From contig OY970368.1 of assembly GCA_963718615.1 (NCBI GenBank), positions 2,656,001-2,720,000 on the forward strand: a stretch of 64,000 nt of DNA. The letters are read 5' to 3'. Shown piece after piece: positions 42,077 through 44,501 of the stretch. The DNA is from an uncultured cyanobacterium (GTDB lineage: Bacteria > Cyanobacteriota > Cyanobacteriia > PCC-9006 > JAAUQQ01). The notes beneath the pieces are model-generated. The model was not told the origin of the DNA. It saw nothing but the letters and a program-made list of their open reading frames with translations, and did no database searches. The number at the start of each line of letters is the position of its first letter. Position 1 is the stretch's first letter. A program made the translations under genes and the position numbers.

Positions 42077-42141
42077 GGCAACTTTAAAAATGGGTTAAAG
42101 GTGCAGACCAAGCGCATACAAACCCATAGAAAAAGCAAAAT

Positions 42142-42169
42142 CTGGACCCAGTTCAATCAGTGGGTCCAG
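42142..42169 (-). terminator. terminator downstream of the PatX-like gene
   Basis: CTGGACCCA...TGGGTCCAG with a T-rich tail on the minus strand. Confidence 0.6.
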
Positions 42170-42281
42170 TTACACCTCTTGTGAAGGCAAAAAATAAAGA
42201 ATTACAAATAGAAAAAGCGTTGGTTTAGCTTAGATTCGACTTCTAGATTCGGCTTAGAAATTTACAGGCTAGGGTACTGGA

Positions 42282-42704
42282 TTAACCGACCCAACCAGAC
42301 TCCAAACCGCGCTCGCTACCCCGATAGGCTACGATATTGTCTTGCGATTCGCGCAGGCCGTTACTGAACCGACCGCTGGCCCGATAGGCGATCGCCTCAA
42401 CGCCTCGCTCACTACCGCGATAGCCCATGGTATCGATGCTGCCCTCAAACCGACCACTGGCCCGATAGGCAATCGTGTTTTCAACATCATGATTAAACCG
42501 ACCACTAGCTCTGTAAGCCACTGCATTACCAGTATCAATTCGGCCTGTAGCTCGATAGGCAACGGACGCAGCTGAATCGGTATTAGGTTTGATTAGAGAC
42601 AGGTTATTGAGGTTTTCCCAAGCCGGAGCTGTGATCACGGTAAGGGCTACTGCGCCAAGCAAGGGGAGGGAAAGAATGCTTTTTGTTGTGCACATAAGGG
42701 ACAT
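42282..42704 (-). CDS. secreted PatX-like precursor with six RG(S/T)GR-variant cores
   Basis: hydrophobic signal-like N-terminus; cores YRATGR, YRASGR, YRASGR, YRGSER, YRASGR, YRGSER. Confidence 0.75.
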   Translation of the reverse strand: MSLMCTTKSILSLPLLGAVALTVITAPAWENLNNLSLIKPNTDSAASVAYRATGRIDTGNAVAYRASGRFNHDVENTIAYRASGRFEGSIDTMGYRGSERGVEAIAYRASGRFSNGLRESQDNIVAYRGSERGLESGWVG

Positions 42705-42741
42705 TGGATACCGCGCCAGTAATTGTTCTCAACTACCCCTA

Positions 42742-42769
42742 TCTACAAGGCATCTCAGTAATGTCCGGA
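42742..42769 (-). promoter_or_regulatory. DIF1-type promoter TCCGGA-N17-GTAGA
   Basis: TCCGGA at 42769-42764 and GTAGA at 42746-42742; TCCGGA lies about 60 nt upstream of the ATG. Confidence 0.65.
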
Positions 42770-42870
42770 ATGGAAAGTATTTTTTGTGCCAATCAAGAGA
42801 GCATCGCACTTAAGCTATTTTCTAGGCTATCTGTGTTATATTTTTACGCCTACCTCAAGGAAACCCCATC

Positions 42871-42899
42871 AAAAAGCGGACTCCGTTTCCGGAATCCGC
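42871..42899 (-). terminator. chlN intrinsic terminator
   Basis: minus strand GCGGATTCCG-GAAA-CGGAGTCCGC-TTTTT. Confidence 0.85.

Positions 42900-42950: not shown

Positions 42951-44501
<1,551 letters not shown>

Follow-up and report, generated by a model that had tools for sequence, protein, structure and literature searches.

A candidate multi-core PatX-type precursor behind a DIF1-type promoter in an uncultured cyanobacterium

The 64,000-nucleotide (nt) stretch of DNA analyzed here, hereafter the window (positions 2,656,001 to 2,720,000 of the forward strand of contig OY970368.1, assembly GCA_963718615.1, from an uncultured cyanobacterium), contains on its minus strand a gene for a protein of 140 amino acids (aa), in which a signal-like N-terminus is followed by six short units resembling the RG[ST]GR motif of PatX. 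Our favored interpretation, which we hold with modest confidence, is that the gene encodes a divergent, multi-core, exported precursor of the PatX type, and this judgment covers the whole chain from promoter through export, cleavage and peptide release to action on HetR; the narrower statement that the gene belongs to a wider PatX-type superfamily and to its promoter class is, taken alone, highly probable. A prohormone-like precursor related to PatX and PatS had already been proposed in the preliminary description of this DNA, and that proposal gained from the hetR and patX genes, the multi-core homologs and the promoter described below, whereas its premise of a single-motif PatX has to be revised.

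The six-unit protein and its promoter

The coding sequence, its N-terminal region and the six units occupy the following positions in the window:

42282..42704, minus strand: coding sequence of the 140-aa multi-core protein, stop codon included, with an ATG start (open reading frame list and translation)
42624..42704, minus strand: signal-like N-terminus, aa 1-27, MSLMCTTKSILSLPLLGAVALTVITAPA, with putative cleavage after A-P-A (translation, by eye)
42540..42557, minus strand: unit 1, YRATGR, aa 50-55, in the context VAYRATGRI (motif positions)
42498..42515, minus strand: unit 2, YRASGR, aa 64-69, in the context VAYRASGRF (Y64-F70 invariant in a 16-sequence alignment)
42450..42467, minus strand: unit 3, YRASGR, aa 80-85, in the context IAYRASGRF (motif positions and 16-sequence alignment)
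42405..42422, minus strand: unit 4, YRGSER, aa 95-100, in the context MGYRGSERG (motif positions)
42369..42386, minus strand: unit 5, YRASGR, aa 107-112, in the context IAYRASGRF (motif positions and 16-sequence alignment)
42309..42326, minus strand: unit 6, the terminal unit, YRGSER followed by G, aa 127-133, in the context VAYRGSERG (Y127-G133 invariant in the 16-sequence alignment)

Translation and motif positions bore out what the preliminary description had reported of this open reading frame (ORF), namely its length, its signal-like N-terminus, the residues at which the six units lie and the lack of any canonical core: RG[ST]GR is missing from all six units, and their cores (RATGR once, RASGR three times and RGSER twice) each lie one substitution away from a canonical core. 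The region M1-A27, judged by eye and without a signal-peptide predictor, contains one Lys and a hydrophobic stretch and places A-P-A ahead of W28; a linker of ~20 residues then leads to the units, which are separated by spacers of 6-14 aa. A chance origin of the six units is excluded. In a six-frame translation of the 6.10-Mb genome (12.19 million residues), the pattern YR[AG][ST][GE]R is matched nine times, six times in the 140-aa ORF and three times in one paralog. Because units of the same sequence differ in their codons (units 78 and 105 are identical at 9/9 residues and differ in 3 codons), the repeats are kept at the protein level and do not reflect a recent duplication of DNA; Tandem Repeats Finder reported no DNA repeat within the ORF.

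The protein had no match at E 10 in either Pfam or NCBIfam, and a search of protein clusters returned, with a best score of 0.85, unrelated 'phage infection protein' clusters below a meaningful level. AlphaFold2 modeled it with a mean predicted local distance difference test (pLDDT) score of 49.3 and with no residue at 70 or above; we count the lack of a confident fold in favor of a precursor.

Two promoter elements precede the gene:

42764..42769, minus strand: -35 element TCCGGA (DIF1 motif), starting 65 nt before the ATG, kept at -65 in 7/7 unique orthologs
42744..42747, minus strand: -10 element TGTA (TGNA class), 16 nt after TCCGGA, assigned by the consensus in PMC13342950

The arrangement first recorded as TCCGGA-N17-GTAGA equals TCCGGA-N16-TGTA, and the exact match spans 42744-42769 on the minus strand; the consensus of sigma-HetZ promoters, TCCGGA-N16-17-TGNA-N7-9-T, also admits A at -13 and alternatives at -32 (PMC13342950; this and the other articles are cited from excerpts of their text). 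Promoters of this class drive hetR, patS and patX in Anabaena (PMC13342950). The TCCGGA box noted in the preliminary description thus fits the sigma-HetZ consensus, and a conservation check found it at a fixed place: TCCGGA-N16-TGTA, or in one case the allowed variant with AGTA, lies at exactly -65 in 7/7 unique orthologs from three genera. The 16-nt promoter spacer differs among the genera, and upstream of about -90 the orthologs are unalignable. From these elements, transcription is predicted to start near 42734-42736. HetR-type palindromes of the form GGG-N5-CCC were found neither within 320 nt upstream of the gene nor in the same interval upstream of its orthologs.

Relatives of the protein and the HetR circuit

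A word-indexed search of 5.8 billion proteins yielded 29 homologs of 89-172 aa, none of them with a Pfam domain or a name and all with a hydrophobic or signal-like N-terminus followed by 3-8 AYRASGRF- and (A/S)YRGSERG-type units. When 16 sequences were aligned, 23 of the 24 invariant columns (among the invariant residues being A66, A82 and E131) lay inside the units, whereas the spacers varied in length and sequence, which is the pattern of a multi-core precursor. When a profile was run against 1.84 billion representatives irrespective of their length, it gave 53 matches at E <=0.001. The two protein searches pooled comprise 69 proteins, of which 62 are small and contain at least two units; canonical cores alone occur in 24 of these, RA[ST]GR in 34 and R[GA]SER in 35, and the seven pooled matches of at least 261 aa contain no unit or a single one. 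Of 289 units, 248 have Y or H immediately ahead of the first Arg. In orthologs of the window's gene, unit 1 reads either RGSGR or RASGR, compared with RATGR in the window's gene itself, so that Gly and Ala interchange at position 2 of one and the same orthologous unit.

The multi-core homologs that the preliminary description had anticipated are thus present, and they extend to distant relatives that are signal-peptide proteins with 2-8 canonical [HY]RG[ST]GR units, such as AYRGSGRVE and AHRGSGRIE. Proteins that mix canonical and variant cores bridge the canonical and non-canonical types. Since natural proteins with 2-8 RGSGR/RGTGR units sit in the position of patX, the multi-core layout is not unique to the window's gene, and the view of PatX as a single-motif protein holds in part only. 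What is distinctive here, as read from the sequences, is the combination of conserved non-canonical cores (RASGR and RGSER) with a perfect DIF1 box away from hetR.

Family members are narrowly distributed. In the window genome's order in the GTDB, the family occurs in seven of eight genomes, the window genome included, mostly with several matches per genome. When the family profile was searched over 401 genomes of the class, matches were obtained in 20, namely in 6/7 genomes of the window's own family, in 8/39 of family f9, in 5/39 of family f15 and in the window's genome, with no match in the other sampled families. A hetR gene is present in 19 of these 20 family-positive genomes (the exception being a 62%-complete metagenome-assembled genome) versus 211 of the 401 genomes in the same sample.

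Among the 17 distinct multi-core proteins of the window's order (L003-L029), the last listed unit is R[GA]SER in 14; in L026 and L027 a degenerate copy takes its place, and in L004 the third unit is RASER but the last one RGSER. As a side observation, nearly all of these proteins end in YR[GA]SER[GD] plus 4-8 residues, whatever their other cores (patterns TTTe, STe, aSae and Saeaae), and a terminal unit of the YRGSERG type is missing from the hetR-adjacent canonical proteins of other families.

Linkage to hetR separates the types. In 11/11 loci with canonical cores only, hetR lies directly downstream on the same strand, and patX likewise sits directly upstream of hetR in Leptolyngbya BL0902 (PMC11298460), an arrangement shared by many non-heterocystous species; in contrast, none of the examined loci with RASGR- or RGSER-bearing genes contains hetR. 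A sample of 61 genomes provided 30 hetR loci, and in 22 of them a small motif-bearing ORF stands beside hetR; 21 of these ORFs are single-core, with [HY]RGSGR, and one has four cores. The promoters of these canonical genes resemble that of the window's gene: a TCCTGA box with one mismatch, in the arrangement TCCTGA-N16/17-(T/A)GNA, lies at -62 to -65 in 8/11 canonical multi-core loci adjacent to hetR, and the same arrangement lies at -53 to -69 in 9/21 hetR-adjacent ORFs, including the window genome's own patX (-66). Two further proteins of family f15, from loci L033 and L039, were observed to mix RASGR with RGSGR outside the window's order (patterns aaSSSa and aSa); their genes are without hetR linkage and have TCCGGA-N17-CGTA upstream.

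Compared with PatX of Nostoc/Anabaena PCC 7120 (model NF047413), the 140-aa protein is likewise small and has a signal-like N-terminus by inspection, as do its homologs, and it shares the [HY]-R-x-[ST]-x-R unit with an aromatic residue or His ahead of the first Arg (as in HRGTGR), a promoter of the DIF1/sigma-HetZ type and a filamentous cyanobacterial host that bears hetR. It differs in having six units rather than one, Gly2 replaced by Ala in four of them and Gly4 by Glu in two, and in lying away from hetR and remaining unscored by the PatX model. Export, cleavage by PatP and inhibition of HetR have been shown for Nostoc PatX (PMC12756182) and are proposed here for the 140-aa protein. The hetR-adjacent multi-RGSGR proteins (e.g., L031, L034, L035 and L037) are closer in layout, with a signal-like N-terminus, repeated [AH][YH]R-G-[ST]-G-R, variable spacers and a -35-type box about 62-65 nt before the ATG, and they are matched by the family profile; however, their cores are canonical, their box is TCCTGA rather than TCCGGA, hetR follows them directly and they have no terminal YRGSERG. 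The PatX model scores canonical multi-core relatives at 24-28 bits, below its cut-off of 30 bits. With PatS and HetN the protein shares the R-x-S-x-R core logic, and PatS also has a DIF1 promoter, but PatS is a cytoplasmic single-motif peptide of 17 aa and HetN a reductase-like protein with one internal motif, and neither is a secreted multi-core protein.

The genome of the window contains the components on which such peptides could act. Two hetR genes were found in the search that the preliminary description had proposed; copy 1 encodes a protein of 301 aa whose alignment to solved HetR structures is free of gaps, and copy 2 is 60% identical to copy 1. In the crystal structure of the HetR hood domain with PatS6, the hood domain gains a beta-strand from the peptide; E253, D270' and D278' bind the two Arg side chains, E253 also binds the Ser, and E254 and D256 hold the hexapeptide's free N-terminus, with longer peptides binding worse; the contact residues are R223, E253, E254, D256, D270 and D278 (PMC4649674). 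Both HetR copies keep R223, E253, D256, D270 and D278, and copy 2 has E254A. On the side of the peptide, both Arg residues and the Ser/Thr are kept in all six units and the changes are confined to the two Gly positions, which, from the geometry of the strand, putatively face its other side. A complex prediction for two hood domains of HetR copy 1 (residues 216-301) together with residues 44-140 of the protein, run with custom alignments, gave a score of 0.01, with the mark at 0.32, a result that speaks for binding as little as against it.

A canonical patX-like gene was also found: directly upstream of hetR copy 1, an ORF of 46 aa ending in HRGSGRK (G000:C1:6006297-6006437; L044:1105 onward) has TCCTGA-N17-TGAA 66 nt before its ATG, and the NCBIfam PatX model does not detect it. 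A multi-core paralog of 96 aa with a signal-like N-terminus (G000:C1:4039391-4039750, minus strand; L025:1486-1776) contains the units YRGTGR, YRGTGR and HRGTGR and a terminal YRGSERG, and no DIF1-type box with at most one mismatch was found within 320 nt upstream of it. The genome further contains one HetP-family gene (NCBIfam) and three genes of the HetZ family, one scoring 577 bits with NF037965, over the cut-off, and two scoring 607 and 532 bits with NF037964, just under its cut-off of 612; they lie at G000:C1:159571-163822 and 4265698-4266834, and two of them share a strand at a distance of 2 kb. An exact TCCGGA-N16-TGAA was noted at 162686, at the 3' end of one hetZ-like gene and ahead of or inside the next ORF. 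The label patU for a 320-aa ORF downstream of one hetZ-like gene was dropped for want of an NCBIfam match, and neither HetR-type palindromes nor exact DIF1-consensus sites led to hetZ or patU. Ten proteins encoded behind DIF1 sites include a diguanylate cyclase, a mechanosensitive channel, an HpsJ-like protein, a ParA-like ATPase, a glycosyltransferase and unknowns. Separately, the palindrome GAGGGGGGTCATCCCCCTC at G000:C1:368807, about 310 nt upstream of hetR copy 2 (start 369117), fits the GGG-N5-CCC core, and hetR copy 2 could, on this sequence, be under HetR control. A true nifH was observed at G000:C1:4071397-4072212 (473 bits, over the TIGR01287 cut-off); the organism is probably a non-heterocystous diazotroph, and this bears on what HetR and its peptides might pattern.

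Flanking elements and gene neighborhood

The gene is bordered by the following features:

42866..42899, minus strand: terminator-like hairpin (42876-42899) and T run after chlN (terminator scan; -21 kcal/mol, z -3.8)
42129..42169, minus strand: terminator-like hairpin (42142-42169) and T run, 113 nt past the stop codon (folding, -20 kcal/mol, z -3.76)
42951..44498, minus strand: chlN-like gene, nitrogenase component 1-type oxidoreductase, the conserved upstream neighbor (Pfam PF00148)

Stable hairpins with T runs on both sides agree with the earlier suggestion that the gene has its own terminator and is insulated by that of chlN; the downstream hairpin was missed by the terminator scan because its loop exceeds 8 nt. 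Between the stop codon and this hairpin lies a tandem repeat of 13 bp, TAGATTCGACTTC, in 1.9 copies (window 42231-42255). The neighbors in the window, as identified by Pfam scan, are chlN, chlL, a convergent gene for a DUF6930/DUF7309 protein, an iron-sulfur assembly protein and a tetratricopeptide repeat protein. The ortholog lies directly downstream of chlL-chlN in six of the seven genomes, and in the seventh the contig stops 350 nt upstream of the gene. The chlN-like protein, of 515 aa, was seen to contain a low-complexity Ala/Ser/Glu insert at roughly residues 165-235, which is conserved in that its relatives align over the same length. Near two related loci (ortholog and paralog), the scans identified a PP-loop ATPase, dapB, a kinase and a resistance-nodulation-division transporter.

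Mode of action, competing explanations and implications

In the interpretation that we favor, the gene would form a transcription unit of its own, expressed from a promoter of the sigma-HetZ (DIF1) type, and its product would be exported by means of a Sec-type signal peptide. PatP cleaves Nostoc PatX on both sides of HRGTGR, the active hexapeptide in that organism (PMC12756182). By analogy, the 140-aa protein may be cleaved in the periplasm on both sides of each unit, and each molecule would then release four hexapeptides of the YRA(S/T)GR type and two of the YRGSER type. The released peptides may re-enter cells and act on the HetR/HetZ circuit; their likeliest site in one or both HetR paralogs would be the acidic PatS pocket, since every unit keeps the Arg, Arg and Ser/Thr whose side chains make the contacts.

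Several observations weigh against this interpretation. Exact matches to the promoter consensus are about as frequent as expected, with 1 observed versus 1.05 expected in the window and 94 observed versus roughly 75 estimated genome-wide (16 of the 94 lie outside long ORFs and ahead of an ORF); since a single exact match is thus no more than chance would provide, it is the conservation of the box that argues for the promoter. Even this conservation involves about 3-4 independent lineages rather than seven, as four genomes of one genus are nearly identical in the promoter region. The protein itself, as stated above, contains no RG[ST]GR, a sequence by which PatX is recognized, and NF047413 (cut-off 30 bits) matched neither the protein at E 10 nor anything in the genome at E 1. 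Nor is the gene a neighbor of hetR: it lies at 2.698 Mb, and hetR copies 1 and 2 lie at 6.007 and 0.369 Mb, respectively. The Glu at position 4 adds negative charge to what would be the ligand of an acidic pocket. Finally, deletion of patX in the non-heterocystous Leptolyngbya BL0902 had transcriptomic effects that were largely independent of hetR (PMC11298460), and canonical PatX may therefore act otherwise in non-heterocystous organisms.

In an alternative that we regard as possible though not likely, the precursor belongs to the same family and has been neofunctionalized: the RASGR and RGSER peptides would have left the PatS pocket of HetR and would serve another receptor or purpose, for example a HetR-independent PatX pathway, or, in the case of the terminal YRGSERG, processing or sorting rather than binding as a ligand. 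The invariance of A66, A82 and E131 indicates selection for the variant rather than decay, RASGR genes were never linked to hetR in the examined loci as opposed to 11/11 canonical-only ones, the genome already has a canonical patX and a YRGTGR/HRGTGR paralog, and the BL0902 result points in the same direction. Yet all six units retain the Arg, Arg and Ser/Thr that contact HetR, the promoter is of the same class as those of hetR, patS and patX in Anabaena (PMC13342950), and hetR accompanies the family in 19 of 20 genomes.

We find it very unlikely that the protein is an unprocessed repeat protein of the periplasm or envelope, whose units would be beta-strands of a structural or binding module with no role in peptide signaling. 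AlphaFold2 did place weak beta-strands on five of the six units, and two canonical multi-RGSGR relatives, at 28.3 and 28.8 bits, narrowly exceed the cut-off (24.2 bits) of Pfam DUF2807, a repeat domain found in putative adhesins. However, the confidence of the model is low throughout, the number of units (2-8) and the length of the spacers vary freely among close relatives, which is unusual for a folded repeat domain, the 140-aa protein itself has no Pfam match, and such a module would leave unexplained the adjacency of relatives to hetR and their DIF1-type promoters. The two relatives concerned are L031 and L034, with seven and eight RGSGR cores; DUF2807 is described as a putative adhesin head GIN domain, and the matches are likely due to the repeated pattern GSG-x-[VI]-E.

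Eukaryotic prohormones and the multi-core precursors of ribosomally synthesized and post-translationally modified peptides (RiPPs), such as those of the cyanobactin PatE type, likewise carry several conserved units and variable spacers in one product. That the cores are modified by tailoring enzymes before export is nevertheless the most improbable of these alternatives: apart from the core-and-spacer layout typical of several multi-core RiPP classes, it can draw on one canonical relative, whose match to a model of cyclophane RiPP precursors was not significant (E 0.061; 13.6 bits, cut-off 55), and against it stand an N-terminus that resembles a Sec signal peptide rather than a RiPP leader and the finding, by Pfam scan, of no RiPP maturase or tailoring gene among the neighbors in the window or in the two related loci. 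Homologs beside RiPP enzymes had been named in the preliminary description as a sign of such a precursor. Dibasic cleavage sites, by which prohormones differ, are likewise missing from the 140-aa protein.

The exported PatX-type precursor that we favor would also admit a more elaborate version, which we think rather unlikely and present as speculation. One polyprotein driven by sigma-HetZ would yield a fixed 4:2 mixture of YRA(S/T)GR and YRGSER peptides that discriminates between the HetR paralogs or combines an agonist with an antagonist, canonical RGSGR/RGTGR peptides would come from the hetR-linked patX and the paralog, and together these would form a multi-ligand morphogen code for graded, combinatorial patterning in a non-heterocystous filament that bears nifH.

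In the literature examined, in excerpts (e.g., PMC12756182, PMC11298460 and PMC13342950), PatX is treated as a single-motif protein. No description of a multi-motif PatX was found in the literature searched, a scope outside which falls the founding 2018 PatX paper, which may already describe one. To our knowledge, no description exists of the conserved non-canonical RASGR/RGSER class, in which a perfect DIF1 box is combined with conserved linkage to chlLN. The multi-core precursors, the several paralogs per genome and the conserved non-canonical cores suggest that the inhibitor side of the HetR system has diversified well past the single-motif view. Surveys with hidden Markov models miss such genes; because the NCBIfam PatX model finds nothing in the window genome, that genome would be scored as hetR-positive and patX-negative. 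The gene also yields directly testable reagents (three hexapeptides, both HetR paralogs and a single clean promoter) for studying how HetR is tuned by the sequence of a peptide and whether bacteria can produce a morphogen in the form of a polyprotein. Conservation of the TCCGGA box, in turn, would extend the concept of the sigma-HetZ regulon beyond heterocyst formers.

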